From a virus (taxonomy: Duplodnaviria > Caudoviricetes), in IMG/VR virus record IMGVR_UViG_3300049913_000009, positions 1 through 36,770 of that record: 36,770 nucleotides of DNA. One strand, given 5' to 3'. The position numbers and the translations under genes were made by a program. The notes under the pieces are model-generated. The model had not been told where the DNA came from. It saw only the letters and a program-made list of their open reading frames with translations, and did no database searches. Positions 1-35,343 of this stretch are shown piece by piece. Positions within the stretch are counted from its first letter, which is position 1; the number at the start of each line of letters is the position of its first letter.

Positions 1-2103
1 GGGAACGACCTTGCCGTCCTCGGCCTTCCAGCCGGTGACGCCATAACGGATAATCGGCTCGTCCTTGCTGACCAGCTTGCGTCGTGGGTGTCGAAAGTCA
101 TCCCAGAGATCGCCGTAGATCTGCCAGCCGGCGTCCGTTCTCTCCACACGTGTCACCTTGCGAATGTCGTACACAAAGCCTCTCGCGTGCAGTGGGGTCA
201 CCAAGTCACCCACCTTGACCAGGTCCGGAACGTCCGGGTCGGCAGCCGGCTGCGTGACTACGTCGACTGTGGCCACTTCCTTCTTAGCGTACCATTCACA
301 GCCGTACTGTCCTGTCTCCATCGGGTAGCCGGGGATATTGCATGAGGTGTCGCAGCTGCCGGGTCCGTACTTGCAGGAGTGACAGAGACAGGGTCCGCCT
401 TCGCCATTGTATCGGAGCTCGCATGCTGTTTCAGGGCATGGGCCTTGTCCGGGTGCGTAGATATCCGCGGGGAAGGTGGCTTTGTCGATCCAGTGTTCAC
501 AGTCCTTGATGATCGCCGGGTAGGGCTTGTGGTGATGTGGATGCTCGAGCGTGCAGATGGAACAGATATGGTAGGGCTCGTCGCCGTTCATCGCGCAGTT
601 CTGATACGCTCGGCCACAGGTAAGGCACTTGCACTCACCACAGAATTGCCGCACATACCGCTGAAGAGTGACCATGTGCTGCTGTTCCATGGGCAACTGA
701 CTCTCCGTGTTTCCCAGGACGTCGACAGTGAGAGCAGCCTTGCGCCCACAGAGGGTTGTCGGCTGGAGCTCGGGCTTTCCCAAGCACTGGTCACAGCCAC
801 AAGGCGGACAGTTCGCCCATTCCTTGTCGGTGTAGTTCAGGTGCGCTTGGTTCAGGCCACAGGTCTCGCAGTCACAGTGGCTGCAGGTGTCGGCGTTGCT
901 TCCTGGGAGAGGGTTGTTGTCATAATCCGCGCGGGTGAGCTTCGGCTGCTTCTTCGGTTTCGGTTGCTTCGTCGCTTTGACGGGCACGGTCGGCTGTTCC
1001 TCGCCATCCTTCGCCCGGAAGTCAGGACATCCTCCCATCTTGCCGCCATGCTTGGAACAATAGATCGGTCCCTCGCAGGTGTGACAACTCTCTCCATTGT
1101 TGGCGCACTTCGGGCAGAGACAGTCGGAGCATGTCCAGCCTTCGCCCTCAGCTTTCGAGTACGCAGGACACTCCACAGTGTGAGCGTGATAGTGGCCACA
1201 GACACTTTTGTTCATCCTTTTGCATTGACCGCACGTCTCCTGGTTGATGCAGCTATGACAAAGACAGGGGCTTGTACCTAGACAGCCGTGAGGAGCGAGC
1301 GCCTCGAGGTCGCGATTCCTATTCGCCCTAGACGTCGCCCTCGACTTCTTCGCCTTGGCGGGCTTCGCCGTAAGTTCGACAGGAGCAATGGCCGTAGGCG
1401 CCTTCTTCCGGTGTCGCATGAGTAGCCGCCACTTCTCGAAGGGCTCGTAGACTCCAATACCATTGCGGTCGTTCTGTTTGGCGACGGCAGCGAGCGTCCA
1501 AGGCGTGTGATTGATGCGCCAGTAGAACTCTTCAGTCGATTCTCCGAGGTCGTAGCGGGAACCGTTCTCGACGCCCTGGATCAGCCCCTTGTTATATGCC
1601 TGAGCGAGCAACTCTTTCGAGAAGAATGGTGCTATCTCATTGGCTGTGGGTGTGCTGACTCTCTGCAGATACATGATGAGCCTGTCCTCTGCCAGCTTGT
1701 CGAACTTGTCCGTTGCCGGCCAGTAGCCGACGCAGCGCTCGATGGTACATGGAGGATCCTGCCGACAATCGGGCTTGCACATGCAGCCGTACAGCGGGCA
1801 GCTCCCGCCCTGGTACTCGCCACAGTTCCGGCAGTCGCACATCCAGGGAGATTCGAGCTTCTCACATGGCAGATGAATTTCTTTCAGATGTGACACGTCC
1901 TTCAAGATGCAGGCACTGTCCTGAGTCGCGCAGTCGCCACCGCGCATGACGCACCAGTTGTCGTTATGTTCTGAGGCGTCCTTTCGGAATGCCGCGCCCG
2001 CGAAGGTGTCTACCAGCTTGGCGCTCCAGGGAGCAACGACCGGCGTGATAGGCTCAGGGAACAGGCTGCCCGCCCATCCATTTGCAACAGGCGCGCGTCT
2101 CAT
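1..2103 (-). CDS. Large Cys-rich CxCxxC-repeat protein, N-terminal 701 codons (continues across the circular junction)
   Basis: Manual translation: ATG at 2103 overlaps the upstream stop (ATGA) and there is no stop down to base 1. Motifs CDCRNC, CLCHSC, CLCPKC, CDCETC, CGCDQC, CKCLTC, CLCHSC. Absent from the ORF track because the stop is not on this side of the window. Confidence 0.85.
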   Translation of the reverse strand, partial: MRRAPVANGWAGSLFPEPITPVVAPWSAKLVDTFAGAAFRKDASEHNDNWCVMRGGDCATQDSACILKDVSHLKEIHLPCEKLESPWMCDCRNCGEYQGGSCPLYGCMCKPDCRQDPPCTIERCVGYWPATDKFDKLAEDRLIMYLQRVSTPTANEIAPFFSKELLAQAYNKGLIQGVENGSRYDLGESTEEFYWRINHTPWTLAAVAKQNDRNGIGVYEPFEKWRLLMRHRKKAPTAIAPVELTAKPAKAKKSRATSRANRNRDLEALAPHGCLGTSPCLCHSCINQETCGQCKRMNKSVCGHYHAHTVECPAYSKAEGEGWTCSDCLCPKCANNGESCHTCEGPIYCSKHGGKMGGCPDFRAKDGEEQPTVPVKATKQPKPKKQPKLTRADYDNNPLPGSNADTCSHCDCETCGLNQAHLNYTDKEWANCPPCGCDQCLGKPELQPTTLCGRKAALTVDVLGNTESQLPMEQQHMVTLQRYVRQFCGECKCLTCGRAYQNCAMNGDEPYHICSICTLEHPHHHKPYPAIIKDCEHWIDKATFPADIYAPGQGPCPETACELRYNGEGGPCLCHSCKYGPGSCDTSCNIPGYPMETGQYGCEWYAKKEVATVDVVTQPAADPDVPDLVKVGDLVTPLHARGFVYDIRKVTRVERTDAGWQIYGDLWDDFRHPRRKLVSKDEPIIRYGVTGWKAEDGKVVP

Positions 2104-2306
2104 TCCACGACCTCGAGCGTACCAAGGCAGCGCGACAGACGGCTTGCTTGGATGGTGAAACTGGTGACGCCGTGCCCATCCTGAAAGGCGACCCACTTCT
2201 GTGTCTCATTGCCGACGACCGTGCCCTTGAAGATGCGCCCGTCGACGAGAACGAGTTCCACTTTCTGACCAGGGGTAAGAGACTTGATGACACCGTTGTT
2301 GTTCAT
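2100..2306 (-). CDS. Small beta-rich hypothetical protein (possibly Sm/SH3-like)
   Basis: MNNNGVIKSLTPGQKVELVLVDGRIFKGTVVG...; ATGA overlaps on both sides. Confidence 0.6.
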   Translation of the reverse strand: MNNNGVIKSLTPGQKVELVLVDGRIFKGTVVGNETQKWVAFQDGHGVTSFTIQASRLSRCLGTLEVVE

Positions 2307-2479
2307 GGATTCCCCCACCAGAACCTTGTCTGTTTGATGTTCCGAGCAATAGTGTTCCGGCACTTGTCGTACGCTGCCTTCTGGCCCTTGTGCCGTTGAC
2401 GCCAGTTGAACTGATTGAACCGGTCCCTGTCCGGGTTCTCTTCCCTCCATCGTTTCATCACAACGGAAGCAGCGGTCAT
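2303..2479 (-). CDS. Small basic hypothetical protein (58 aa)
   Basis: MTAASVVMKRWREENPDRDRFNQ...; ATGA coupling to both neighbours; below the ORF-track length cutoff. Confidence 0.6.
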   Translation of the reverse strand: MTAASVVMKRWREENPDRDRFNQFNWRQRHKGQKAAYDKCRNTIARNIKQTRFWWGNP

Positions 2480-3132
2480 GGCTTCTCCTTCGGGATGTAG
2501 AGGACTTGCACCCGGACGTTGCGACGACGGCCCTTTGTTTTATCGTGGCACTTCTTACAGAGCGTCTTTCCATTATCAACGTCAAACCTCTCGTCTGAAT
2601 ACTCAGCGAATCTGTGGATGTGATGCGCTTCGAGAACAACAGCATGACCATTGCCACTATGCGCTCCGCACTCTTGGCAAGTGTAGTTGTCACGTTCGAA
2701 GACAGCAGTACGCCAAGTCATGTATTCAGGACTATCGCGGATGATGTGATTCTCGGATGTAATTCCGCCCTTCCAGAATGGATTCAGTTCACGTCTCATA
2801 TCTGCATGATTGGCAGAAAGAACGGCGCGCGCTTTGGGTGACCACGGAATGCCCTTGTTCCATGGAGCGCGACCGAGACAGTTCGTGTTCCCCATTTTTC
2901 CAGCGGACATATGTGCTCTTTCTTCAGGTGACGGGTGCCTTCCTCTGAGTTTTGCTGCTCTTTTTGCCGTTGCTTCAGGGGTATGGGAAGCCGTCAGACA
3001 AGCGTCCGTCAGTGGTTTGCCTTTGTGCGATGCGGACATCCTTGCACAAGCCTCAGGAGAAACGGAATGTCCCATATGCACGGCAGAATCTCTTGCTCGT
3101 TGTTCATCTGTCATGTGCTGTCCGAGTTTCAT
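2476..3132 (-). CDS. NUMOD3-repeat HNH homing endonuclease
   Basis: NUMOD3-like repeats (HSVSPEACARMSASHKG, HPSPEERAHMSAGKMG) followed by CQECG...LEAHHI...DNGKTLCKKCH. Confidence 0.85.
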   Translation of the reverse strand: MKLGQHMTDEQRARDSAVHMGHSVSPEACARMSASHKGKPLTDACLTASHTPEATAKRAAKLRGRHPSPEERAHMSAGKMGNTNCLGRAPWNKGIPWSPKARAVLSANHADMRRELNPFWKGGITSENHIIRDSPEYMTWRTAVFERDNYTCQECGAHSGNGHAVVLEAHHIHRFAEYSDERFDVDNGKTLCKKCHDKTKGRRRNVRVQVLYIPKEKP

Positions 3133-3782
3133 GGTGTCCCCTCGAGTGCGAAGTCATGGGCAATCTCCCGGATCATCGCTGCATAGCCTGTTGACCTGCA
3201 ATACCCGAGCCGTTGGACTTCCCGAGCATAGCGATAGACGTCAGACTTGTACTTCAGGGCTGACGTGTAGCCGTGAGAGGGGTCGGTGAGCATATGTCCC
3301 TGCTGATTGAATGACGCCGCCAGACTGGCGAATCGCTGGTAGGCAATACCGTCGATGTAGATTGGAGTTCCATGCCCTTGATAGGTCACACCAAAGTAGT
3401 TGTGTCCTGCCACGGCAAGACGAGAGCGCCCGCGGTCACTCTCCAGGATGGCTTGTGACAGGAGAAACGCAGCAGGGACACCATACTGTTTCTCCGCCTG
3501 CAGTGCTGTTGGGATAGCGAGGACGACGAACCGCTGCGTGTCGGTGACAGGGTTGCCGCTTCTGCTAACCTGATGGATCCAGGTGGCGAGATAGGGCGAT
3601 GGTGGGGCTACGGCTGCCATCCTGCGGGCAGTCCGAAGATTCACCCAGTCGTCGGCACTCGTCTGTCGAGGTCCCAGGAGTGTGAACAGCATGATGAACA
3701 GCGTGACAAGAGCTGCCACGAGCAGGATGATGGCGACCTGGCTATAGTCGATGCGCGTTGGCCTGCGTGAGGACCACTTCAT
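3129..3782 (-). CDS. Membrane-anchored GH73/FlgJ-like glucosaminidase
   Basis: N-terminal hydrophobic helix; YGVPAAFLLSQAILESDRGRS...HNYFGV...GYC pattern; start placed at the ATGA overlap. Confidence 0.8.
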   Translation of the reverse strand: MKWSSRRPTRIDYSQVAIILLVAALVTLFIMLFTLLGPRQTSADDWVNLRTARRMAAVAPPSPYLATWIHQVSRSGNPVTDTQRFVVLAIPTALQAEKQYGVPAAFLLSQAILESDRGRSRLAVAGHNYFGVTYQGHGTPIYIDGIAYQRFASLAASFNQQGHMLTDPSHGYTSALKYKSDVYRYAREVQRLGYCRSTGYAAMIREIAHDFALEGTP

Positions 3783-4222
3783 GACCGTAGCGCGCGCACT
3801 TGGCGCTCGTGCCACCAGGCCTCGAGATCGTCTGAGCTGCGAACGACCAGGTACAGGGCGCCGGAACTCTCAAACCGCAGCTGCCACTCTTCCTGCTCGT
3901 GCGTCTGGTACGTACCAGGACGCTTGACCTCGATGCCGATCAGACGTCCGGTGCCAGGTTCGATCGCCAGGATGTCGGGAAGGCCTTTGGTGCCATAGCG
4001 GATGAAACTGCTGCCGTATGACCCGTCCTTGCGCTGGTAGTTGTGCGTGGCGCAGCCTGTGTTGTTACGCCAGAACGTGAAGTCCTGCATTGCCAACCAG
4101 GCCATGACTTCGCCCTGGATGGCGGACTCTTTTCGCGTTGCCTTCGCGTACGCTTCCGGGTCAAGAACCTCGTTGGAACAATCTGATACGGGCTTGCGCC
4201 GTTGTTCTGCTGCGATAGTCAT
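3779..4222 (-). CDS. VRR-NUC domain nuclease
   Basis: ESAIQ...GLPDI...IEVKRPG...Q PD-(D/E)XK pattern. Confidence 0.85.
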   Translation of the reverse strand: MTIAAEQRRKPVSDCSNEVLDPEAYAKATRKESAIQGEVMAWLAMQDFTFWRNNTGCATHNYQRKDGSYGSSFIRYGTKGLPDILAIEPGTGRLIGIEVKRPGTYQTHEQEEWQLRFESSGALYLVVRSSDDLEAWWHERQVRALRS

Positions 4223-4260
4223 GCGATCCTCCTAGATCGATTGTTGCGTACAGTCAGGTA

Positions 4261-4476
4261 CTAGTGCTGGTGCTGTGCTATGGCCTCTCCTTTGGGTGCT
4301 GTGAAGTCGAGCCTGTCAGCCCACTCACTCTTCTTGCCCTTGTTCCACTGGGCAACAGGTCTCAGATAGCCGACGACGCGACTGTAGACCTCAGTCATGA
4401 AGAAGTCCTTGATGCAGTGGACTTCCAGCGCAACCTTGATGTCGTAGGCTGAAACCTTTAGTTCCTCGATCTTCAC
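4261..4476 (-). CDS. Small protein with NrdD C-terminal glycyl-radical motif
   Basis: TEVYSRVVGYLRPVAQWNKGKKSEWADR matches the class III RNR C-terminus. Confidence 0.75.
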   Translation of the reverse strand: MKIEELKVSAYDIKVALEVHCIKDFFMTEVYSRVVGYLRPVAQWNKGKKSEWADRLDFTAPKGEAIAQHQH

Positions 4477-4715
4477 GGGGTCTCCTTCGGGTCAAGAACC
4501 GACGTCCGAATCATCATATAGGTGCCGTCTCCCATCCCGAACTGGAAGAGAGAGGCATCCAGTATCCGCCTTCGCTCTGCCTGAATGACAGCGGCCTTGA
4601 AGGCGTCAACATCCTCTGTAGCGGCTGTCAACGCAGTTTTATCGCCCATGCCACGAGACTGATATCTAAGGGAGATATTGCTGATACATATTGTCGCAAG
4701 TTCATCAACAGTCAT
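4473..4715 (-). CDS. Hypothetical protein
   Basis: Coupled ORF in the overlapping gene chain. Confidence 0.6.
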   Translation of the reverse strand: MTVDELATICISNISLRYQSRGMGDKTALTAATEDVDAFKAAVIQAERRRILDASLFQFGMGDGTYMMIRTSVLDPKETP

Positions 4716-4993
4716 GCCGTCACCTTCTTGTTCAGTTCCTGTACCACGATCATGCGGTAGTATCGCCGTGCGTTATGGTACACACCTGTTCCATCCACGG
4801 GGTAACCTTCGTCCTTCTCGTTCTGCATCATCGCGAGGGCGTAGACAGGCACATCGATCGTGCCTTCCTTGTCGCGAGGCATCCAGGGGACATAACAGAT
4901 CCACTTTCCTTCTTCGAGGGCAAACTTCACGCGCCAGTAGTAACGGAAGGTGACTGCGATCATCTCCTGCGAGGGCTTGATGTTCTCTCTCAT
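4712..4993 (-). CDS. Hypothetical protein
   Basis: ATGA overlap at 4990-4993. Confidence 0.6.
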   Translation of the reverse strand: MRENIKPSQEMIAVTFRYYWRVKFALEEGKWICYVPWMPRDKEGTIDVPVYALAMMQNEKDEGYPVDGTGVYHNARRYYRMIVVQELNKKVTA

Positions 4994-5286
4994 GACTGCA
5001 CCCCAGCGCACGCGGCCTCTACTCTCATTCGTTGTTCGAGCCGTTCCAACTTGGCAAGCCTGGCTGCGTAGATTTGCGGCCCCCAGATCAGACGCATCTG
5101 GTCAACCATGATGCTGACGTCGGCAATCTCTGAAATCAGGTCAGTCGGAACGTTCGTGCGCCCGTTCACCAGCTTCAGCACTTCCGTGGCTGCTTCACAG
5201 CACTCTTCGCCGAAGAGCATGATCTGCATGTTCTGTCCCCAGGTGTCCATGGCTTTCTGCAAGACCGCTTCCTCCAGGGAGGTCAT
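4990..5286 (-). CDS. MazG-like NTP pyrophosphohydrolase
   Basis: EECCE...EIADV acidic motifs. Confidence 0.75.
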   Translation of the reverse strand: MTSLEEAVLQKAMDTWGQNMQIMLFGEECCEAATEVLKLVNGRTNVPTDLISEIADVSIMVDQMRLIWGPQIYAARLAKLERLEQRMRVEAACAGVQS

Positions 5287-5621
5287 GGCTGCCTCCGTTC
5301 TGTGGCCACTTGAACGCCAACGACGTCGAAGTCGGCTGCTGCGTCCGAGTCACTGAGATCCGAGTCGTGCGCCAATGCTCTCAACGCCGCCGCGGCCTGA
5401 TGGTCCGGATACTGCCCATCCTGGTACTGGACGCTCACGGGATACTCCGTGCCGTCTTTATTCCAGCGCTTCACCGGGAAGTGCATCATCGCGCCATCGA
5501 ACCCGATCTCGACAAACTGGTTGGGGTAGGATTCCAATGCTTCGACCAGCGGGCGCCACTTTGCAGCCAAGTCCATGAAGCGCATCATCACGGCCGTGGT
5601 GCCAGCGAGCTTCGCCCTCAC
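5283..5621 (-). CDS. Hypothetical protein
   Basis: Coupled ORF. Confidence 0.6.
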   Translation of the reverse strand: MRAKLAGTTAVMMRFMDLAAKWRPLVEALESYPNQFVEIGFDGAMMHFPVKRWNKDGTEYPVSVQYQDGQYPDHQAAAALRALAHDSDLSDSDAAADFDVVGVQVATERRQP

Positions 5622-5875
5622 TTCAACCAGGGCGTGCGCGTAACCACCAGCACTATGGAACTTCCCAGCCGTGAACGCAGCCTTGCGCTCCTTGCGGCGG
5701 TTTGCTCTGCCAGGGCCGCATTGGCGTAGGCCCGGCTCAGTTCTTCGGCAAAATCCTCAGCGTGTGCTATGGCGTCGTCCCTAGCACAGATGAGTTCAAC
5801 TGTACGTGTCTCGGCATATACCATCGCCTTGTACTCCGTGTCCTGCATGATCACGAGCTTGCCGAAGCGTCTCAT
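5618..5875 (-). CDS. Hypothetical protein
   Basis: Coupled ORF. Confidence 0.6.
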   Translation of the reverse strand: MRRFGKLVIMQDTEYKAMVYAETRTVELICARDDAIAHAEDFAEELSRAYANAALAEQTAARSARLRSRLGSSIVLVVTRTPWLK

Positions 5876-6057
5876 TTTGCCACCTCACGCACAATGTAAC
5901 CGTTCGCTGCCGATGCACGCTGATCGAACTCGCGGCAGATCACCTGTTCCGCGATGACGCCAGGGCGCACGGCGCACATCATGGTCTGCCGATGCAGACG
6001 GGCGTTCAGAGCACATTCTTGGTGCTTGCAGATCTCACAGAGGATCGCGCGCTTCAT
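5872..6057 (-). CDS. Small Cys-containing hypothetical protein
   Basis: CEICKHQEC...C...C; coupled ORF. Confidence 0.6.
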   Translation of the reverse strand: MKRAILCEICKHQECALNARLHRQTMMCAVRPGVIAEQVICREFDQRASAANGYIVREVAK

Positions 6058-6251
6058 GACTGTACCTGCTCTGTGATGATCCTTCTGGCTTCCTCTGGTG
6101 TATCCGCTGCGAATGGAGGCACAACCTTCACAACAAGGTCATTCCCGTCGCAGTCCTCAGTATAGTCCTTGACGTCACCAAACCATCGCTTGACCTGAAC
6201 AGTTCCATTCGCATGCAGATAGCCCCACCACATGATGATGTCGAGTTTCAT
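6054..6251 (-). CDS. Hypothetical phage protein
   Basis: WWGYLHANGTVQVKRWF; coupled ORF. Confidence 0.65.
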   Translation of the reverse strand: MKLDIIMWWGYLHANGTVQVKRWFGDVKDYTEDCDGNDLVVKVVPPFAADTPEEARRIITEQVQS

Positions 6252-7000
6252 GCCGTCGCCCCCTGGACGAGCTGGCGGATGAACTCCACTCCCCGCTGGT
6301 AGACTACCGTCTTGAAGTACAGGTGCTGGTTTCCGTCCGGATCCGTCCAGGACGTCTCGATGACACGGAAGTACCCGGCGTCGACATATCGCTGGTACGG
6401 GCGGTTGTTCTCCTGGAGAATCGACTTCTTCCGGAGCAGGTCGAACAAGTTTGTCCTGCCCAGTCCGGGAACAGCCAGCGTCTTCGCGACCGTGCCGATG
6501 TCCGTGGTGTCGGAGCTCGAGGCTACGGTGTCGAAGAAGGCGACCTTCGGGGCGGCAAGGGCCAGCTGCTGCGTCTGCTGCTCGATCTGCTCTGCCTGCT
6601 TGGCTGCCAGGTAGAGGGCAGCGCTGAATGATGTCGGCACCGCGGGCGATACTTGGACAGACGGGATGGTGTACGTGCCGGTGGTGCGAAGAGAAGGCAG
6701 AACGTCATGCTTCAGCCATTTGATGAACGGTCCGGCAGCCTTGTGGTGAAAGGCCAGGCCATAGACCCCTTCTTCGGAGACGGCGATCATCGACTGGCGC
6801 CCACCAGGGGTGTCCGCGATTACCGCACCCTTTTCGTCATCGGTCAGCCATTCGACGGCGTCGCGATACTTGCTGATGTCCAGGATGCTGCAGACGTCCT
6901 TCGCTACAAACCAGATCTTGCCATCGATGACCGACGTCCGCACCGGCTCCTTGCCAGCATATTGAAACGTCGTGATACTGCTTTCAACTGTTGGTTCCAT
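6248..7000 (-). CDS. ant: Antirepressor, BRO-N plus KilAC/ANT domain
   Basis: WFVAKDVC...SEEGVY (BRO-N); PKVAFFD...GRTNLFDLLR...PYQRYVDAGYF (KilAC). Confidence 0.9.
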   Translation of the reverse strand: MEPTVESSITTFQYAGKEPVRTSVIDGKIWFVAKDVCSILDISKYRDAVEWLTDDEKGAVIADTPGGRQSMIAVSEEGVYGLAFHHKAAGPFIKWLKHDVLPSLRTTGTYTIPSVQVSPAVPTSFSAALYLAAKQAEQIEQQTQQLALAAPKVAFFDTVASSSDTTDIGTVAKTLAVPGLGRTNLFDLLRKKSILQENNRPYQRYVDAGYFRVIETSWTDPDGNQHLYFKTVVYQRGVEFIRQLVQGATA

Positions 7001-7033
7001 TGCGATCCTCCCAGATCGGTTGTGACTGCTGTC

Positions 7034-7735
7034 CTAACGCATAGATGGGCCTGTATAGGTGATCCATTCGCATTGTGCCCGCCATCGGTCGGCGATGCAG
7101 GCCAGCTCGCCGCCTTTGTAGCCGGGCACCACAATTGTCTGTCCGTTCTCTCCCTGAACCTCGCGCGTATCCCAGCCGTCGGGCGGCACGTTGCTTGTGA
7201 TAAACACCGGGCGGCGCTTCTGATACCGGCTGTTCGCAATTTCATAGAAGGCTGCCACGGCCGCTTTGCCCCCCGCCTCATGGCCGAGATCGTCCACGAC
7301 CAGGACCTTCGCCGCCTTGGCATCGCGGACAACCGCGCGCGCCTCTTCGCCCTGCTTGCCATAGAGACAGTCCAGGACGCTGAACAGGTGGGGCGCGGTC
7401 CAGATTGACAGCGCGTGCTCCGGGAGAGGCAGGTCGCCATTTGCCAGCAGGTCCTGCCAGCAGCGCCAATGGAGATATTCGAGGGCACAGTGGACGGCTG
7501 ACGTCGTCTTGCCGGTGCCCTTCGGTCCCATGAAGACGATGCCAGTTTTCTGGACAGTGGCAAATTGCAGAACCGCCTCGAGCTGAGAGCGCGCGCGGCA
7601 TAACCGTGGATCCCAGACAAGACACTCACTCCCGAAGTCGTCGCTGAGCCGGATGCCGCGGACGATATAGGACATCCACTGGGCGAACCGTTCGCGGTAC
7701 AACCCGATCATCTCTTCCGAGAATGTCCCAGCCAT
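7034..7735 (-). CDS. DnaC/IstB-like AAA+ ATPase (helicase loader)
   Basis: Walker A GPKGTGKT, Walker B LVVDDLG, FITSN; directly follows the initiator. Confidence 0.85.
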   Translation of the reverse strand: MAGTFSEEMIGLYRERFAQWMSYIVRGIRLSDDFGSECLVWDPRLCRARSQLEAVLQFATVQKTGIVFMGPKGTGKTTSAVHCALEYLHWRCWQDLLANGDLPLPEHALSIWTAPHLFSVLDCLYGKQGEEARAVVRDAKAAKVLVVDDLGHEAGGKAAVAAFYEIANSRYQKRRPVFITSNVPPDGWDTREVQGENGQTIVVPGYKGGELACIADRWRAQCEWITYTGPSMR

Positions 7736-8313
7736 CAGCGTTCCTCGTCCTTGTCGTTGTCCGGGTTGAAGGTTGCCTGGTGGTAGCGGTCCTTGTGCGG
7801 GTCATAGGAGCCGGAAGAGATTCCAGCCCAGGTCTTGTCCTCGGGGGTCTGGGTTTCTGGCTTTTTGGTCTCGATTTTGGAACCATTTAAGGAAGGCTCT
7901 CTTGTTGTTGTATCCCTTCTTGTTATTGTGGGTGCCGATTTCGGTAACGGTTTCGTTACGGATTTCGGTAACGTTACGTATTTCGGTAACTCCTGCCACT
8001 CTCCGTAATGCTTGTTGAATTCATATCTGCAGAGACGCACGTTACCGATTTCGGTAAAGGTTTTGATGACGATGTTCCGTTCTGCCAGGCGCTTGAGTGT
8101 GTTGGCGACGTGCGTTTTGTCAATTCCGGTCCCGTCGACGAACTGTGCCAGACTGATCAGGTCAGACTTCTTCGACCACCCGTAGGTCTTGCGGAGAAGG
8201 AAATGCAAAACGCGCCCCTCGTACCCGGACAACTGGGTACGTGCGAGCGCGTCCATAATTGGATTGGCAACCGGCGTATAGCCGTCAGTGAGTTGTGGGT
8301 TTACCTTGCTCAT
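7735..8313 (-). CDS. Lambda O-family replication initiator
   Basis: DGYTPVAN...RVLHFLLRKTYGWSKKSDLISLAQF...FNKHYGEW; internal iterons. Confidence 0.88.
   Translation of the reverse strand: MSKVNPQLTDGYTPVANPIMDALARTQLSGYEGRVLHFLLRKTYGWSKKSDLISLAQFVDGTGIDKTHVANTLKRLAERNIVIKTFTEIGNVRLCRYEFNKHYGEWQELPKYVTLPKSVTKPLPKSAPTITRRDTTTREPSLNGSKIETKKPETQTPEDKTWAGISSGSYDPHKDRYHQATFNPDNDKDEER
7931..8058. repeat. Replication-origin iterons (4 x 18 bp, consensus GTTACNGATTTCGGTAAC)
   Basis: Copies at 7931-7948, 7955-7972, 7973-7990 and 8041-8058 inside the O-like gene; quasi-palindromic. Confidence 0.85.
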
Positions 8314-8317
8314 GGCG

Positions 8318-8368
8318 TCAGGTATCGGAGGGATGCTGGTCAGGTGGTGGTGTCTCGATGCGTGTCAT
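8318..8368 (-). CDS. Putative 16-aa leader peptide upstream of rep
   Basis: AAAAGGA SD, MTRIETPPPDQHPSDT*, stop 4 nt before the rep ATG, which has no clear SD of its own. Confidence 0.45.
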   Translation of the reverse strand: MTRIETPPPDQHPSDT

Positions 8369-8491
8369 CGTCGCGATCCTTTTCCACTGTCCAAATGTAA
8401 AGACGAGGGACGGGGCCGGGATCGTGGAAGCGGCGGCAGGTTCTCCTGCCTCAGAACGGTAGCTGACCGTCTGCCGCATCCCTCTATGACC

Positions 8492-8519
8492 ATCGTACAC
8501 GAATCCAAATTCCTGTCAA
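8492..8519 (-). promoter_or_regulatory. Sigma70-type promoter for replication genes
   Basis: TTGACA-N16-TACGAT. Confidence 0.65.
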
Positions 8520-8583
8520 GGGTCACGTTATACTCCTGGATGTGGCCCACTGCTTGCGTTCTTCCTCAGTCATAACCATGACA

Positions 8584-8665
8584 ATCCTCCCAGATCACGT
8601 GATGATATGCCTAAGCCAGGGCGCCAACCGATCTAGGAGGATCTACTAAGGTATAACACCTTGGC
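8584..8665 (-). ncRNA. Candidate antisense/leader regulatory RNA
   Basis: Contains GAUCCUCCUAGAUCGGUUG (8643-8625), complementary to extended SD motifs at 4225, 7004, 8584 and 35316; lies just downstream of a promoter. Confidence 0.55.
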
Positions 8666-8699
8666 GGTGATACCTTAGGGGATAGCTCCGTTTTGTCAA
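8646..8699 (-). promoter_or_regulatory. Promoter with overlapping operator-like inverted repeat
   Basis: TTGACA(8699-8694)-N16-TAAGGT(8677-8672); inverted repeat CTAAGGTAT...ATACCTTAG at 8646-8678. Confidence 0.6.
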
Positions 8700-8881
8700 G
8701 CATCTGCCCTTTCACGGATCTGCACTAGGAGCTGACAGTATCTGCGGTACAACTGCCACAGCTCTTCCGTCTCCTGGACGCGCCCACTCCGGCGAGCTGC
8801 CGGCGCACGATCACGGATGACGGCCTCGAGTGCTGCAGGCGACTTCCACATCTTCTGATGCTGTTCGTATGTGACGACCAT
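8696..8881 (-). CDS. Hypothetical protein
   Basis: ORF in early gene chain. Confidence 0.55.
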   Translation of the reverse strand: MVVTYEQHQKMWKSPAALEAVIRDRAPAARRSGRVQETEELWQLYRRYCQLLVQIRERADA

Positions 8882-8891
8882 GGCACACCGG

Positions 8892-9137
8892 TCACTTGGT
8901 CACGCGGTACAGATGTTCCTGTGTGCCGCTGTTCCGTGGTCTCCCGGTGCCGTACTGGTCCAGGCGGGCCTGGAGACGCTCACGGTCGCGCAGGATCATT
9001 GCATAGAGCATTCGCAGGTCGCCAAACTCGTCCTGCAGGACTTTGTTGTCACGGCGCAGGCGGGCGACCTCCACGCCCGCCGCCATGATTTGCGCCTCTT
9101 CGAGACGTGACAGGACCCTATGCCCGAACAGTCGCAT
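8892..9137 (-). CDS. Coiled-coil hypothetical protein
   Basis: ORF in early gene chain. Confidence 0.55.
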   Translation of the reverse strand: MRLFGHRVLSRLEEAQIMAAGVEVARLRRDNKVLQDEFGDLRMLYAMILRDRERLQARLDQYGTGRPRNSGTQEHLYRVTK

Positions 9138-9138
9138 G

Positions 9139-9567
9139 TCAGACCACCTTCTGGACTTCGAGTTTTACTTCGCGCACCGTCACGGCCTGGATCTCCTTCG
9201 CGGCGATAACGGTTCGGAATAGCTCGACGTCGATACTCTTGGCGTTCGCGATTGCCACCAGAACCTTCTCGTCGACCGTCTTGACGATGCACGCCGAACC
9301 CCACGGCTCGGCCTCAATCTTCGAGAGGTCGTAGACAATCGACGGGGCCGGATGCCGGATGGTCAGGATGGCCTCGTAGCCGAGGCATTCCACCCGCGGT
9401 GTGTTCGACTGCTTTACTGCGTCTTTGACCAGACCTTCCAGCGTGATGAGATGTGCTATGACCTCTTTGTACTGCCGGATTTCCGGCGATGTCTCCATAT
9501 CGGCCAGCATCTTGCGGGCCTCGACATAGGTTGTCAGCGCTGTCACTGCATCCATCGCCGTCATCAT
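9139..9567 (-). CDS. Hypothetical protein
   Basis: GGGAGG SD before ATG at 9567. Confidence 0.65.
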   Translation of the reverse strand: MMTAMDAVTALTTYVEARKMLADMETSPEIRQYKEVIAHLITLEGLVKDAVKQSNTPRVECLGYEAILTIRHPAPSIVYDLSKIEAEPWGSACIVKTVDEKVLVAIANAKSIDVELFRTVIAAKEIQAVTVREVKLEVQKVV

Positions 9568-9643
9568 GTTGCCCTCCCGCCACATGTTGGGCACATGCGA
9601 GTCTGGACGCCGCGGTCATTCGCCCACGGACATTGTGCGCAGG

Positions 9644-10705
9644 TCATTTGAACAGCTCCGCGAAGTCATGAGGATCCATGGGTTCGTACCCATCCTGCAG
9701 ATTGTGAATCAACTCTGCGGCAAACGCCATGTCGATGGTTACCTGACGCCCGTCGACTGTCGCAACCGGCGGGTCTACATGAACGTTGATCCCCTGGATG
9801 CTGAACTTAGCCAGCTCTTCGGCCGACTTGTTGGACGCCAGCTGCTCGATGGCCGCCAGCTGGTCGCGGGTCGCCGGCGTACTGACGGATTTCGGTGTCT
9901 CCTGCTGGGCTGTCTCGACCGTACCATCCACCACGTCATCGAGATCATCCGGCCTGCTCTCGTCCGGTTCCGGCACAGCCACGGTCCCGCCATCTTCGCC
10001 AGCTCTCAGCGCAGGCACGAGGGAGACAGGAAGCTTCGCCAGGTCGCGGATCGTCCCCTCGTACGTCAGATGCATGTAGCGGATGTGCTTCTTGCCCATG
10101 CCCTTGGCGGCGTCCATGTGGTCGACGTCCCGTTCCATGAGACTGAGGGTCAGGGGCACGAATGCGATGCGCCCGTTCAGGGCAGCCCGGATCGTGGCCA
10201 CATCGTCCAGCAGTTCAGTCAGGCCATTCCAGCTCTTGGTATCAATCTGGTAGGTCCCGACGCCGGGAACGTCCGGCAGGTTGACCATGAGGTTCATGGT
10301 CGGCGCGCAGCCCTTGAGCTTCACTTCGCCGTTCTTGTCGATGTACTGGTTGAACTTGCAGTCCTTGGCGCCAGGGCATTCGCATTCGATACGCGTCCCG
10401 GTCTTGAGGTCGAGGCGCTTCGCCGTCACGCCGTCTCCCTTGCAGACGGGAGCAACCGTGCTCGCTCCGTACAGCTTGAGCCAGACGGGCATGACGACGT
10501 CGACATCGTTGCTAAGAAACATCACTGTCAGTTGTTTCGGTTCGGGGCCGTATTTCGCCTGCACCTCCGGCGGGCAGACGAAGTAGTCGGTCTGCGATGG
10601 ATAGCCCTTTGTATCGTTCTTGTCACGGAACTTCCTGATGCCGAGATGAATTTTTCCTTGACGGGGCGCATGGCGCTGCCCGTCTGAAATCCCTGTAATT
10701 GGCAT
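9644..10705 (-). CDS. Gp3-like (recombination directionality factor-like) protein
   Basis: PRQGKIHLG...GYP..TDYFV...YG.EPKQL...CKGDG...C.C...C...C..GTYQIDTKSWN pattern recalled from this family; GGAGG SD. Confidence 0.65.
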   Translation of the reverse strand: MPITGISDGQRHAPRQGKIHLGIRKFRDKNDTKGYPSQTDYFVCPPEVQAKYGPEPKQLTVMFLSNDVDVVMPVWLKLYGASTVAPVCKGDGVTAKRLDLKTGTRIECECPGAKDCKFNQYIDKNGEVKLKGCAPTMNLMVNLPDVPGVGTYQIDTKSWNGLTELLDDVATIRAALNGRIAFVPLTLSLMERDVDHMDAAKGMGKKHIRYMHLTYEGTIRDLAKLPVSLVPALRAGEDGGTVAVPEPDESRPDDLDDVVDGTVETAQQETPKSVSTPATRDQLAAIEQLASNKSAEELAKFSIQGINVHVDPPVATVDGRQVTIDMAFAAELIHNLQDGYEPMDPHDFAELFK

Positions 10706-10734
10706 ACCGTACCTCCAAGGTCTCTGATATGGTA

Positions 10735-10926
10735 CTATTCCGTCAGTTCGTCCAGACTAAGTCCGGTTAACTTCTTCAGTTTCTGTGCGTTCGCCAGCGC
10801 TGGCCGCGACACACCCTTCACCCACCTCCATGTTGCGTTGTAGCTCGTTCCCATCTGCTGCGCCAACCACAGGACGGTCTTGCCGTGCTGTGCCAGCCAC
10901 TTCGCGATCGGTGTCTGCTTCTCCAC
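10735..10926 (-). CDS. Cro-like XRE HTH regulator
   Basis: LAQQMGTSYNATWRWVKGVSRP...LSLDEL; 63 aa. Confidence 0.85.
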   Translation of the reverse strand: MEKQTPIAKWLAQHGKTVLWLAQQMGTSYNATWRWVKGVSRPALANAQKLKKLTGLSLDELTE

Positions 10927-11317
10927 ATTCCTCCTTTCCCGACAGACGGTCGGCCAATTCCTTCAGATAGTGGTTCCAAGCAATGCCCTGTGTGCCGGCG
11001 CCTGGCTCGTGCGGGCCTCTTCCATCAATGACGCGCCACAATCCGTCAAACCGCGACTTTCGGCAACGCACGGTCTGGTCCGGCTCCTTGCCTTCGCTAA
11101 AGACACCCCCAGTCAAGACAAGATCGATAGGCCGATAGTAATTCACATGCCGGACAGTGCCAAGTGTCCAGAACAGGACCGTGAGCGGTTCTGCGCTCCG
11201 AGCAGTTACGCCGATAACCAAGCCGAAGTTGCCGTCTTCGTCGCTGCCGTCGACGATCTTGACCTCCTTTTTCAAAAACCGGTGCCGCAACTTCATGACA
11301 TCGAACTCTTCTTCCAT
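10757..11317 (-). CDS. Hypothetical early protein (3' end overlaps cro-like gene)
   Basis: GGAGG SD before ATG at 11317; true 3' end uncertain. Confidence 0.55.
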   Translation of the reverse strand: MEEEFDVMKLRHRFLKKEVKIVDGSDEDGNFGLVIGVTARSAEPLTVLFWTLGTVRHVNYYRPIDLVLTGGVFSEGKEPDQTVRCRKSRFDGLWRVIDGRGPHEPGAGTQGIAWNHYLKELADRLSGKEECGEADTDREVAGTARQDRPVVGAADGNELQRNMEVGEGCVAASAGERTETEEVNRT

Positions 11318-11468
11318 CTCGAGCCTCCAAGGTCTCTGATAATTCCTGTTGCGCTCGTATTGTATCCATTCGGTATATATTTTCCAGCCGTCAATGGTGA
11401 AAGAACTATGAACACTTCCTAGTATAAACAGGGTGCTGGCGCCGTCCATTACAGCGCAGACACGCAGT

Positions 11469-11533
11469 TGGTCACGTGGTCGCTTGCGCCCATGGTCATT
11501 CTGGCACAAGGTCACTTGTGACAAAGTGACCAA
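11469..11533. repeat. parS/operator-like array, TGGTCACN with 8-bp period
   Basis: tggtcac(11469), tggtcgc(11477), tggtcat(11493), aggtcac(11509), then inverted gtgacc; overlaps the rightward promoter. Confidence 0.7.
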
Positions 11534-11544
11534 CGTGTTATACT
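11516..11544 (+). promoter_or_regulatory. Promoter of the partition arm
   Basis: TTGTGA-N17-TATACT with extended TGn. Confidence 0.6.
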
Positions 11545-11588
11545 TGCGCGGACCTTGGAACAGCGAGACCTTGGAACGGAGGTACGAT

Positions 11589-11804
11589 ATGGCTTCAGGG
11601 TTTTGTTCCAAGACCGTCCATCTCACCGATCCGATCCTCATCCAACTCGTCGAGACCGTCGCACAGGTCCGCAAGTGTTCGCTCGAGCATGTCATTTCTG
11701 ACGCGGTCGCCTATCGCTACGGCTCCCGGTCGCCCGTTATTGAAGAAGGTCTGCCGCTTCCGGACGTGACGCTCATTACTGAGACGGACGGCGATAATGA
11801 GTAA
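11589..11804 (+). CDS. Putative ribbon-helix-helix regulator
   Basis: GGAGG SD; KTVHLTD[15 protein letters not shown] pattern. Confidence 0.55.
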
Positions 11805-12281
11805 CGTCATTGCCGTCGCCAATCAGAAAGGCGGCGTCGGGAAAACGACCATAGCCTACCACGTCGCCTGTTACCTTGCGCAGAAACGGCGTACGTTAGT
11901 CATTGATCTGGACCCGCAGGCCAACATGACGGAGATGTGGGCAGACCCGGCAGTCATCGCGGAAGACCACTGCATCATGGCAGCACCGGACTGACATCCA
12001 GCATCATGAGCCTGCGCAAGAAGTGGAACCCCGGCCTGTCGATTGCCGGGATCGTCGTCAACCAGGTCAGGACGAACACCCATGACGATGTCGAGATGAT
12101 CGCACTCATGCGGGCGAAATATGGCGAGGCGATGTTCGAAGCAGAGTTGCCTCTCTATGTCGCTATCCGTGGGGCGGTGAAGCGCCACGTGCCGGTGTGG
12201 CGGTGGCAGGCAAGTTCTAAGGCAGCCGAAGTCTATCTTGCCCTCATGGCCGAGATTGAAGGGAGAGTATTTGCCTCATGA
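11797..12281 (+). pseudogene. parA: ParA/Soj ATPase, internally deleted and frameshifted
   Basis: [10 protein letters not shown] and IDLDPQAN are followed by a stop at 11994. The C-terminal part (LSIAGIVVNQV...VYLALMAEI) is in another frame, and the Walker B segment is missing. Confidence 0.85.
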
Positions 12282-12529
12282 AGAGACCGAAGAGTTTCCT
12301 GGAACAACCGGACAAAGAGGGTCGCGTCCAAGCACACTTCCGCATGACCGACGATGAGCGCATGGAGATGCAGATGCATTGTCTGAGACGACACCGTTCC
12401 GTTTCGGACTGGCTCTGCGAAGCCGTGAAGGAGAAAATGGCGCGCGAGCTCGAGGCCGACATGCACAAGGCGGCAGAGGAATCGGAGCAGCTGCCGGACG
12501 TGTCGAGTCTGCTCCTGCATCACAAGTGA
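12278..12529 (+). CDS. ParG/omega-like RHH centromere-binding protein
   Basis: Flexible N-terminus, then VQAHFRMTDDERMEMQ...SVSDWLCEAV; ATGA-coupled to parA. Confidence 0.75.
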   Translation: MKRPKSFLEQPDKEGRVQAHFRMTDDERMEMQMHCLRRHRSVSDWLCEAVKEKMARELEADMHKAAEESEQLPDVSSLLLHHK

Positions 12530-12557
12530 CCATGGTCACATGCGACCATGTGACCAT
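12526..12557. repeat. parS-like array (4 octamers, mixed orientation)
   Basis: gtgaccat-ggtcacat-gcgaccat-gtgaccat immediately after the RHH gene. Confidence 0.75.
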
Positions 12558-12858
12558 ATGGGGAGAGAGACAGTAATACTCGCATGGATTTGCCAATTCT
12601 GCTCCCGTCCATATCCTCGAAGTGGCTTCTCCTTTCGTGTACCTCCTTGGTCCAACGGGCGCCAGCCACGCCCGCACCTGTACAAATGGGCGCGCGGTGT
12701 GAAGGAAGACGCCCTGGCATCCCCGCTCTCTTTGAGGGTGGCTCGACACTGAGGACACCGCCCGCCCCAACCTGTGCCCCGTTCCACCTCACCTGTGCGC
12801 GCGGGGCCTTTTCATTTTGTGATGTGCGGCTATGCTATCGAATCATAGGAGGCAGATC

Positions 12859-13044
12859 ATGGGTGACACAGCGATTGACGAGAAGACCGAAGACTTGGCC
12901 GCGATCCGCAAGATGATGGAGGAAGAGAAAGCGGCGAAGGAGAAGAAGGATAAACTGGCGGCCGTGAACACCATCGCCAACTTTGCGATCTGGATCGGTG
13001 TGGTGATTATCGGTATTGCCCTCCTGGTGACATTCTTGAAATAG
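12859..13044 (+). CDS. Small membrane protein (61 aa)
   Basis: AGGAGG SD; charged N-terminal half and a C-terminal TM helix. Confidence 0.75.
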   Translation: MGDTAIDEKTEDLAAIRKMMEEEKAAKEKKDKLAAVNTIANFAIWIGVVIIGIALLVTFLK

Positions 13045-13334
13045 GGAGATTCCTGCCCGACGTTCGCGAACCGCTACGATAGCCGGCGTATTTGCAAGGT
13101 AGGGGTACTAGCACACGGCAAGGCATTTGAAATCTTCGCCTAGGGCCTCTTTTTGAGACGCTGATCCAGCGGATTGTCATTTTAAGGGTGATCCGGTCCT
13201 AAACTGCGACGCCCGACCTGAAAAAGCATCGGGCGAGGATCTCTTCCTGCTCTTGGCAGGTGAGTCTATCTCTTCAACCTCTCATTCATCTCACCCTCCA
13301 CGCCTTAGATTGTCTCGTATGACCATCATGACCC

Positions 13335-13871
13335 TTAAGCGGAATAATACATTGCGGTCATAAGAATCTGGTGAGTACATGTAGAAATGGTAGGCGGGTA
13401 CATCGTGCTACCCTGCGTAATTCCTATTCCAAGATTGTCCGCCGATCCACCCACACAGATGAGTGCTCCGCCCGCTCCGAAAGTACCCATAGCAAAGGGG
13501 AGTCCGGTAATGGTACTTGTTCCGCCGCCAGAGCAAGCAACCGATGTGTTTCCCCCGCTTCCCGCCGCTATATTAAGTGTGACATACACTAGATGCCCAA
13601 TCTTTGCATATACTCCCGTCAATACGGGGGCTGTCCCCACAACGGTAAAACCGACCAATACTGGCGTCCATGTTCCCTCGCTATAGGCCGCAGTACCAAG
13701 CGTTGCCAGTTGTGCCGCAGCGTTGGCGTCGTCCATCAAGTCTTTCCCCGCTTGGCTGACTGCCTGTGTCCCCAAGGTAAGGTCGGTTGCGATCACCTTG
13801 TTCCACTTCTTCGCGGAAGTCCCCAGTTGTCCTTCGTTGTCAGCGCGAGGCACTATATTCTTGGTTGCCAT
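13335..13871 (-). CDS. Tail fibre / receptor-binding protein
   Basis: YSEGTWTPVL...YAKIGHLVYV...ITGLPF fibre C-terminal pattern. Confidence 0.7.
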   Translation of the reverse strand: MATKNIVPRADNEGQLGTSAKKWNKVIATDLTLGTQAVSQAGKDLMDDANAAAQLATLGTAAYSEGTWTPVLVGFTVVGTAPVLTGVYAKIGHLVYVTLNIAAGSGGNTSVACSGGGTSTITGLPFAMGTFGAGGALICVGGSADNLGIGITQGSTMYPPTISTCTHQILMTAMYYSA

Positions 13872-13880
13872 CTCCGCCCC

Positions 13881-13982
13881 CTATATAACCAGAAGAAACA
13901 TGACAATGCCAATGACGGCAACAACAACGAGAATCGCAAGAGTCGTAACCCAATCGGGAAGTTCTCGGAACCAGAAGGTCAT
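13881..13982 (-). CDS. 33-aa single-TM peptide
   Basis: MTFWFRELPDWVTTLAILVVVAVIGIVMFLLVI; ATGA overlap; fills the intergenic gap exactly. Confidence 0.6.
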   Translation of the reverse strand: MTFWFRELPDWVTTLAILVVVAVIGIVMFLLVI

Positions 13983-14788
13983 GCGAACCCCATGAGTTTG
14001 GCATTCGTCAGGATTTCTCCAGCAGTTCTTGCGACGGTAGAAATACGAACGGTGGCGATGGAACCCGTGAAGGAATCGACGCTTGAACTGTTCTTGCCAA
14101 ACATGAGAGTGTAACTGTCCAGTGCTCCAGCTCCTATGCCAAGGTTGCCGCTTGCCACGCTCACGCCGTCCACATAGAGTGCGGCGGCATTGGAACTCCG
14201 TATGATGGTTCCAGCCATGTAGTGGTAAAGTCCATCGTCCACTCTGTTAGCACCAATAACGGCGTCCTCAGCTGTAGCTCTCAGATACCAGATGGGTTTG
14301 CCGCATTGCGCTCCTGATGGCCCGCCACGGATAGCCAAGCACCACCAACCACCTGCACCCGTCAATGGCCCTCTCTCAACAAGACCAAACTGCCATGTGT
14401 TGTCATACGGTGAAGCCGTGGGGACGGTCTCCGCCTTGAACACAACCTCAACCGTCACGTCATTGGATGCGACGTCGCACCCACTTGCAAGCAACACAAC
14501 GGCGGTGTTGGTTCTGACAAACGCCAAGTCAGAACCCCACGGCCCCGTTGTTCCCCATGTGGTGGTATTGAGTGTCGTGCCAATGTGGGGCGTCGTTGCT
14601 TTGTCTGCAACAAGAGTCGTGACACCATAAGGACTGACCGCCCCATTGGCGTTCTCATCAAACCACCACAGTCCAATCGTACTAGCATCCAATTGGAGTC
14701 GATAGGGGGTCTCGATAAGCGTCTGCCCCTTCAGGACGGGAAGGTGCCCCAGACTTGCCCTATCTCGATAGATGTCCCGAACGCTCAT
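13979..14788 (-). CDS. LamG/ConA-like virion protein
   Basis: GLWWFDE...DGLYHYMAGT...LYVDG...FTGSIATVRIS..AR. Confidence 0.8.
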   Translation of the reverse strand: MSVRDIYRDRASLGHLPVLKGQTLIETPYRLQLDASTIGLWWFDENANGAVSPYGVTTLVADKATTPHIGTTLNTTTWGTTGPWGSDLAFVRTNTAVVLLASGCDVASNDVTVEVVFKAETVPTASPYDNTWQFGLVERGPLTGAGGWWCLAIRGGPSGAQCGKPIWYLRATAEDAVIGANRVDDGLYHYMAGTIIRSSNAAALYVDGVSVASGNLGIGAGALDSYTLMFGKNSSSVDSFTGSIATVRISTVARTAGEILTNAKLMGFA

Positions 14789-35227: not shown

Positions 35228-35343
35228 ATCCAGGAGGATATGATTGACGGCACGTATCACTACGCGACATCATACGCGCGCTTGCATGGTCCGTACCTTT
35301 CGTTCTCAAACTCGACCTCCTAGATCGGTTGTGCGTCTATAGT

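Follow-up and report, generated by a model that had tools for sequence, protein, structure and literature searches.

RNA1 and its phage

We analyzed a 36,770-nt stretch of DNA (the window), which is one whole viral record (IMGVR_UViG_3300049913_000009), and focused on a short hairpin RNA predicted within it, here called RNA1. The window is the genome of a tailed phage with nearly all of its genes on the minus strand. Along that strand, early genes starting at ~11.3 kb are followed by a lambda O-like replication initiator, a DnaC-like loader and a Bro-N/KilAC "antirepressor" gene (ant), then by small middle genes and a VRR-NUC gene, and finally by the terminase, head and tail genes. Because a near-identical contig spans both window ends, the genome is circular or permuted. 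An initial annotation, made from the letters alone, had proposed that one leader-encoded antisense RNA at this locus pairs with several ribosome-binding sites and stands in for a CI repressor. The motif and gene coordinates that it gave all hold. The locus comprises the following features (ORF, open reading frame; SD, Shine-Dalgarno sequence):

8672..8699, minus strand: P1, predicted promoter-like signal TTGACA-N16-TAAGGT (-35 at 8699-8694, -10 at 8677-8672)
8615..8665, minus strand: RNA1, predicted 51-nt hairpin (from the fold, with inferred ends)
8625..8643, minus strand: type-A seed, 19 nt, within RNA1 (motif match and pairing)
8584..8596, minus strand: cis target covering the SD of the leader ORF (predicted fold)
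8523..8579, minus strand: 18-codon leader ORF (reading frame)

P1 is present as first annotated, and it is conserved: every one of the five loci that were aligned retains TTGACA, a spacer length of 16 nt and, within the -10 box, A2 and T6, and the spacer letters drift. The predicted start of RNA1 lies 7 nt past the -10 box. RNA1 has a predicted fold of -18.9 kcal/mol, with a long closing stem and an unpaired apical loop that displays the anti-SD letters CUCCUA; opening this loop is computed to cost 0.7 kcal/mol. RNA1 measures 44-51 nt among its five variants, and each is predicted to form a single hairpin with one continuous seed. For all five, the lowest-energy predicted fold of the transcript is the helix between seed and cis site, 2-7 kcal/mol below the free hairpin; in the window, this fold has a z-score of -3.5 against 200 shuffles. 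The stop of the 18-codon leader ORF overlaps the GTG of a 53-codon ORF (8526-8365) that covers a second promoter-like signal and a second predicted RNA (P2 and RNA2, below), and in relatives the leader is one ORF of 46-72 codons. Since its protein sequence and frame both vary between relatives, the leader ORF fits a role in translation coupling. A gene for 61 amino acids lies upstream of P1.

Seed matches on distant Shine-Dalgarno sequences

The motif CAAYCGATCTRGGAGG occurs exactly at 4228-4243, 7007-7022 and 35316-35331 on the minus strand and at 8625-8640 on the plus strand, and with three mismatches at 8586-8601 on the minus strand. None of 100 window shuffles reached these five matches (shuffle mean, 1.1). 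When the 19-nt seed was used instead, requiring at least 13 contiguous pairs and allowing at most two G-U pairs, four non-self sites were found, all on the gene-bearing strand and all covering an SD. Shuffled seeds gave on average 0.2 sites and at most three, so that four were attained by 0 of 300. The motif is not a general ribosome-site consensus, because only 4 of the 26 minus-strand sites with GGAGG plus a start have the upstream letters. Every mismatch within the ranges first annotated is a G-U pair, as had been claimed. Apart from the cis site, the window carries three cognate sites and two sites of a second type (type B, defined below), which we call orphan sites:

7004..7022, minus strand: trans target on the SD of ant (Bro-N + KilAC, 7000-6248), predicted duplex -38.2 kcal/mol
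4225..4243, minus strand: trans target on the SD of the VRR-NUC gene (4222-3779), predicted duplex -35.9 kcal/mol
35316..35331, minus strand: trans target on the SD of a 52-codon TTG ORF (35309-35151), predicted duplex -33.4 kcal/mol
11324..11339, minus strand: orphan type-B site on the SD of the first early gene (186 amino acids, start 11317), from duplex energies
10712..10727, minus strand: orphan type-B site on the SD of a Gp3-like gene (353 amino acids, start 10705), from duplex energies

The initial annotation had placed the 35316 site upstream of the terminase operon. The position is right, and the site is itself the SD of the short TTG ORF. It lies 9 nt past the promoter-like TTGTCA-N17-TAAACT (35369-35341) and precedes the terminase and structural genes; the same layout, 8-9 nt past a promoter-like signal and on the SD of a short first ORF, is seen in the window and four other records. 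The annotated list of four targets stands, but it lacked the genes starting at 11317 and 10705, which carry the poorly pairing site type. Their sites are predicted to pair at -14.3 and -12.1 kcal/mol, respectively, with the RNA1 of the window, compared with -28.8 and -28.6 kcal/mol with the RNA of the relative G004.

Stem, seed and sites change together among relatives

Pattern and protein scans yielded seven records that span the RNA1 locus: the window, G002, G003, L068, G004, L014 and G001. Most single matches to the A or B motif in viral contigs were unrelated to RNA1 phages and were dropped. RNA1 is in place in the first five records, which form the covariation set, inverted in L014 and deleted in G001. 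Both sides changed in 5 of the 13 stem pairs, and 93.4% of the cells are paired across the five variants. None of 500 shuffles reached the stem covariation score, and slid registers pair just 23-40%. Because there are only five variants, two of them nearly identical, these counts are not independent events; across five related sequences, stem covariation is strong evidence but not a probability.

The seed and its sites vary in step. G002 has the same seed as the window and five SD sites. The seed of G003 carries a U-to-C change, and all four of its trans sites have a G at the matching position, which fits because C pairs only with G; its cis site is altered to fit two further seed changes. The seed of G004 (type B) differs at five positions, and its four trans sites and its cis site are all type B. 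For instance, the ant site is type A in the window and G002, A' in G003 and B in G004, matching its own RNA in all four records that hold both RNA1 and ant, and the ant homologues are 68-86% identical across seed types. Likewise, both A and B sites occur, depending on the record, at the VRR-NUC gene and at the gene for 186 amino acids. The distant, near-perfect sites number 3-6; they fall on separate operons and occupy both strands.

Predicted duplexes range from -24 to -38 kcal/mol for cognate distant sites and from -9 to -15 kcal/mol for A-B cross pairs, so that the two seed types are predicted to pair poorly across types. Pairing with the seed spans 15-19 nt at the distant sites versus 11-13 nt at the cis site. 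The 17 cognate trans sites, counted with the two orphan sites of the window excluded, offer 272 positions, of which 244 are Watson-Crick pairs, 20 are G-U, one is A-C and seven are other combinations. Many of the G-U departures are inherited, leaving about six distinct wobble changes versus one A-C at an edge. An excess of G-U is expected for RNA pairing, and a double-stranded DNA site would lack such a bias.

Covariation in relatives had been named beforehand as a check on the antisense proposal, and it is found both for the stem and for the seed against its sites. The genomes themselves display the complementarity, the placement of the sites over SD sequences and the way in which stem, seed and sites vary jointly across related phages. 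The proposal that one leader-encoded RNA pairs with several ribosome-binding sites is thereby well supported by covariation, and RNA1 is very probably an antisense RNA that acts on distant sites.

The partition operon and apparently damaged circuits

Neither a tyrosine integrase, a resolvase nor an S24 domain (PF00717) was found in the five records searched; the S24 set includes three records at least 90% complete. G002 and G004 carry a whole parA gene on the opposite strand, with a small ribbon-helix-helix-like partner (weak match); the G003 record does not extend over parA. As judged from gene content, parA and its partner without an integrase make a plasmid-type prophage likely. The window has the following features in this region:

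11797..12529, plus strand: parA in two pieces, with residues ~67-155 of the G004 protein missing (comparison with G004)
12278-12529, plus strand: ribbon-helix-helix-like partner of 83 amino acids (weak domain match)
11551..11575, plus strand: par-operon leader segment with two type-B sites, which precede the SD (predicted pairing)

The deletion in the window parA removes ~89 internal codons, and its piece of 65 amino acids was found on 8 contigs of the protein collection. The site in the par leader is type A in G002 (15 pairs, two of them G-U), whereas the window and G004 have type B. For the leaders of G002 and the window, a hairpin over the start is predicted, with the site as one arm and the first codons as the other; in the window these codons belong to an ORF of 71 amino acids (11589-11804). 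The first codons of the par operon vary synonymously between seed types. The pairing of leader with codons stood out against synonymous recoding (p = 0.001 in G002 and 0.012 in the window), and with the site bound, the predicted cost of opening the start region drops by 8-10 kcal/mol, from ~17 to 8 kcal/mol in G002 and from ~16 to 7 kcal/mol in the window. Against this, the par leader of G004 shows no significant inhibitory pairing (p = 0.29). Activation of the par leader by RNA1 is thus a lead supported by modeling in two of three genomes.

In the three remaining cases the circuit appears damaged. In G001, RNA1 and the entire par operon are missing from their syntenic places. The junction lies outside any long shared stretch of its two likely parents, which makes an assembler chimera less likely. 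L014 has the promoter and flanks of G004, a hairpin interior that is exactly inverted, a parA cut at its 5' end and a mixture of A and B sites. Its segment 9036-9083 is an inversion relative to L072, between 6-bp inverted ends; being seen on one contig, near its end, the inversion could be either a natural on/off switch or an artefact. In the window, the type-A RNA1 is intact and the first early gene, the Gp3-like gene and the par leader are all type B. The window genome is likely a recombinant in which the circuit is partly lost. Because two early genes are missed and parA is broken, the RNA1 of the window probably cannot hold a prophage silent.

Both records with a whole par operon (G002 and G004) are fully matched between RNA1 and sites, and all three with a broken one (G001, L014 and the window) are not. 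This suggests that the state of par is tied to that of RNA1, but such an association among five records would arise by chance one time in 10. Clusters of GTGACC/GGTCAC repeats flank the par operon in the window (11450-11535 and 12520-12555) and are likely to be partition sites or operators.

A second promoter-like signal and predicted RNA before the replication genes

Downstream of RNA1, the same leader holds a second unit and the replication genes:

8492..8519, minus strand: P2, promoter-like signal TTGACA-N16-TACGAT within the leader ORF, the best-scoring in 1-14000
8404..8485, minus strand: RNA2, second predicted structured RNA, multi-stem in the style of C4, CI and int-alpA (fold -39.3 kcal/mol)
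7735..8313, minus strand: lambda O-like replication initiator (repeats within the gene, 7935-8063)
7735-7034, minus strand: DnaC-like gene, after the initiator (protein annotation)

The -35 box of P2 is conserved in all four aligned loci. The loop of RNA2 matches the SD at 8387-8374, which serves a 16-codon ORF that is coupled to the replication gene, and this cis site is split. Loop and cis site both differ in G004, together. No convincing distant target for RNA2 was found in the window. Upstream of O-like replication genes in distant phages (L043-L049), inspection by eye showed a promoter-like signal and a multi-stem RNA whose loop matches the downstream SD region, with a loop sequence that differs from phage to phage. 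A 16-nt spacer is common among the promoter-like signals in 1-14000, including P1 and P2 across aligned relatives, and may reflect the host polymerase.

Searches for relatives and other features of the window

No close DNA match to the window was found among 50,697 GenBank phages, and no cultured relative was found. The closest terminase matches are ~31-35% identical, one scan aligning the capsid against genomes gave a best match of 29%, and homologue searches with the replication, Ant and ParA proteins returned no named close relative. In the search for more RNA1 variants, an 18-mer of RNA2 gave three unrelated chance matches and the Gp3-like protein gave none. A covariance model applied to over 40 loci did not detect an additional RNA1 either in the window or in G001, and 17 loci of distant replication relatives had no repeated SD motif of the RNA1-site kind. 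Contigs from four further DNA runs cover the hairpin wholly or partly with at most one differing letter; they show no variant or joint at RNA1, and contigs drop rare forms.

An 857-codon ORF spans the circular junction, from 2103-1 into 36765-36295 (minus strand), just upstream of the late region; it has no Pfam or PHROG match. The plus-strand ORFs 379-1281 and 1507-1893 were considered as repressors and rejected, as they are probably shadows of this ORF. At the end of the late genes, the non-coding stretch 13201-13278 is 90-94% identical in A- and B-type relatives and is possibly a terminator or a further RNA. A weak match to a cobalamin riboswitch at 13592-13668 on the plus strand (26.1 of 36.5 bits, E = 0.055) overlies a minus-strand ORF, has no counterpart in the other loci examined and is probably due to chance.

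Comparison with known regulatory RNAs

To our knowledge, the phage immunity RNAs already known (C4, P4 CI and sar) each act on one transcript. C4 folds into a multi-stem cloverleaf with two separate pairing elements. The initial annotation saw no resemblance of RNA1 to C4 or P4 CI, in agreement with our searches: no Rfam family matches RNA1 or RNA2, int-alpA (RF02996) included, and the families C4, c4-2, c4-a1b1 and isrK had no match in the window (E <= 1), in 8300-8800 (E <= 10) or at the G004 locus.

The likeness lies in the arrangement. In the accounts that we consulted, C4 of P1 and P7 (c4-icd-ant, immI) is a leader-encoded antisense RNA that carries its pairing sequences in loops, blocks a ribosome-binding site and controls an antirepressor, and its sequence sets heteroimmunity between these plasmid prophages (PMC12197685, PMC8198154). 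Similarly, all five variants of RNA1 are predicted to pair in cis with the ribosome-binding site of a small ORF downstream, and this cis site covaries. A site for it lies on the SD of the Bro-N/KilAC gene in all four records with RNA1 and ant, so that control of ant is predicted. RNA1 comes in two poorly cross-pairing seed types, which may or may not mark immunity groups. Unlike C4, RNA1 is a simple hairpin of 44-51 nt rather than a cloverleaf. Whereas C4 serves its own operon beside the protein repressor C1, RNA1 matches 3-6 distant sites, each 15-19 nt long, in several operons, and searches of RNA1 phages revealed no gene of the C1/CI type.

In P4, the CI RNA is described as the immunity factor; its promoter lies inside eta, the translation of eta prevents termination, and the replication genes are downstream (PMC10111431, PMC4825925). 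P2 and RNA2, set within the leader ORF, reproduce this arrangement. P4 CI and its SeqA-IsrK relatives are cut from a leader and end transcription by pairing with an upstream (seqA) and a downstream (seqC) site. For RNA1 a downstream site is present, and no seqA-like upstream partner was found between P1 and RNA1, which starts at the predicted +1. CI pairs on its own transcript, whereas RNA1 would reach operons to which it is not linked, the late one among them, and would do so in a tailed phage that is self-sufficient. The sar RNA of P22 is reported to block ant translation by pairing at the initiation region (PMC12197685); it differs in having one target only and in being transcribed from the strand opposite to that target. 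L137, a relative without RNA1, has a multi-stem leader RNA (5380-5453) instead. This RNA scores 27.3 bits (E = 6e-4) with int-alpA, below the gathering score of 35.8. Its loop is predicted to pair both with an SD in cis and, 2.8 kb away, with the stretch that precedes ant (8252-8265; -25.6 kcal/mol). The predicted pairing suggests a function for the int-alpA motif class.

Repeats at many gene starts are also known as start-associated sequences (SAS). These asymmetric, SD-containing repeats are described in cluster K mycobacteriophages and cluster EF Microbacterium phages (PMC3203893, PMC11373665, PMC7302621). They occur in one orientation, and their role was given as unexplained as of 2024 (PMC11373665); four K1 phages are reported to have one copy in the opposite orientation (PMC3203893). 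We found 14 forward copies and one reverse copy of the exact SAS 10-mer in both Adephagia and Anaya. In each, the reverse copy forms the loop of a long predicted hairpin in the late leader:

Adephagia, L155 28660-28715 (JF704105 ~58,660-58,715): reverse SAS hairpin between genes 92 and 93
Anaya, L158 4848-4905 (JF704106): reverse SAS hairpin at the matching place

Late transcription is reported to begin near Adephagia genes 92/93, and the hairpin is predicted to pair with the forward sites at -16 to -28 kcal/mol. It is therefore possible that the inverted K1 copy is a late-made antisense RNA that shuts the SAS genes. SAS have no sequence kinship with RNA1 sites. K phages have a protein repressor and an integrase, and their inverted copy would be made late rather than in the prophage. 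The K1 hairpin arrangement is not general, and start-associated repeats need no antisense partner, because TM4, Pixie and AnnaSerena have such repeats without any reverse copy. Searches confined to openly accessible papers yielded no report of a multi-operon phage RNA or of an antisense account of SAS. By analogy, RNA1 likely works like C4 of P1/P7 and CI of P4 but over many operons, the main difference being its reach.

Is RNA1 the main repressor?

We consider it probable, at roughly 0.7, that RNA1 is the main repressor of its phage family, likely a family of plasmid-type prophages. Several observations count against this. The -10 box of P1 is weak in the window, P1 scores below a consensus promoter scan, and no clear terminator was found behind RNA1 in the window. 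A U-U mismatch lies within the 16-nt core in three of the four G004 trans sites. Five trans sites persist in G001 (a record estimated as 93% complete) without RNA1. An antirepressor-type Ant is present, and no CI-type gene was found whose product it could act on. The near-identity of two RNA1 variants and the repeats without a reverse copy, both noted above, also belong here. Finally, there are two candidate DNA-binding proteins. One is the product of the following gene:

10735..10926, minus strand: stand-alone Cro/XRE-like helix-turn-helix (HTH) gene, 63 amino acids (Pfam HTH_3 below cut-off; profile match)

Its profile matches HTH structures at E = 3e-8, and the gene is found in all seven contigs covering its place. 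The other is the first par-operon protein of 71 amino acids, which has ribbon-helix-helix-like neighbours at 0.91-0.92 and a low-confidence two-helix model.

RNA1 might be a real antisense RNA with only secondary or timing control, the HTH or 71-amino-acid protein being the main repressor, or it might do no more than delay gene expression in lytic growth. P1 offers a precedent, since C4 is reported to act beside the C1 protein (PMC8198154), and G001 exists without RNA1. We judge this unlikely: the HTH gene belongs to an operon of the lytic strand that is itself gated by RNA, 1-14000 showed no conspicuous repeated operator common to P1, P2 and the late promoter, sites lie on early, middle and late operons at once, and the loss of RNA1 accompanies the loss of par. 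For the initial statement that there is no recognisable CI, this means that no S24 domain was found in five of five records but that a Cro/XRE-like HTH gene is encoded. For the family, it is plausible that RNA1 takes the place of CI, given the lack of integrase, resolvase and S24 domain and the seed-matched par-leader site; the conservation of the HTH gene and, in the window, the two missed early genes and the broken parA temper this view.

The repeats could instead bind a phage protein, as RNA or DNA, or enhance translation, with the inverted copy regulating its leader only in cis and the distant copies tracking the specificity of that protein. SD-position repeats of unexplained role are already described (SAS, PMC3203893), some lack an inverted copy, and the sites are still present in G001. 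This explanation is distinctly improbable, as it fits poorly with pairing that is longer at the distant sites than at the cis site, with 20 G-U departures versus one A-C, and with the G003 seed, whose single-base change is followed by each of the four distant sites. A role of the repeats as recombination-promoting module boundaries, homogenised per lineage without regulation in trans, would suit mosaic phages, the type-B module inside the type-A window genome and the location at gene starts, but it is highly improbable because it leaves unexplained the single inverted copy in a covarying hairpin at the predicted start of a promoter, the wobble bias, and the par-leader site with its synonymous codon changes.

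Proposed mechanism and implications

With RNA1 as the main repressor, the circuit would operate as follows. P1, likely a host-type promoter, would fire and the stem would fold, placing the anti-SD in the loop. The seed would capture the SD of the leader ORF in cis, ribosomes would fail to load and, by analogy with P4, transcription would end early, so that a short, stable RNA1 accumulates. In trans, RNA1 would block SD sequences at five places, namely those of ant, the VRR-NUC gene, the recombination gene and the first genes of the early and late regions, and polarity would silence the downstream genes, as expected from coupled transcription and translation. Less certainly, RNA1 would bind the par-leader site upstream of the SD and open the start hairpin, turning partitioning on. 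The seed type would define the immunity group, as in P1 and P7, and RNA2 behind P2 would be a second, more ordinary cis gate on replication. In its fullest form, which we put forward tentatively and at less than even odds, one RNA of 44-51 nt runs lysis-lysogeny by base pairing alone, shutting the first genes of the early, middle and late operons and opening the partition operon; seed swaps would then create immunity groups, and deletion or inversion of the hairpin or acquisition of foreign sites would create lytic derivatives.

The SAS of K1 mycobacteriophages may have a similar explanation, and there the question would become directly testable in a cultured system. If the proposal is true, many SD-position copies together with one inverted copy in a hairpin loop would be a signature to search for, and the A and B sets of seeds and sites would be natural orthogonal pairs of RNAs and ribosome-binding sites. 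The RNA1 phages would have a genome-wide RNA repressor with near-perfect sites on up to six genes, in a circuit readable from sequence, and phages called lytic for want of a repressor and an integrase may be temperate.
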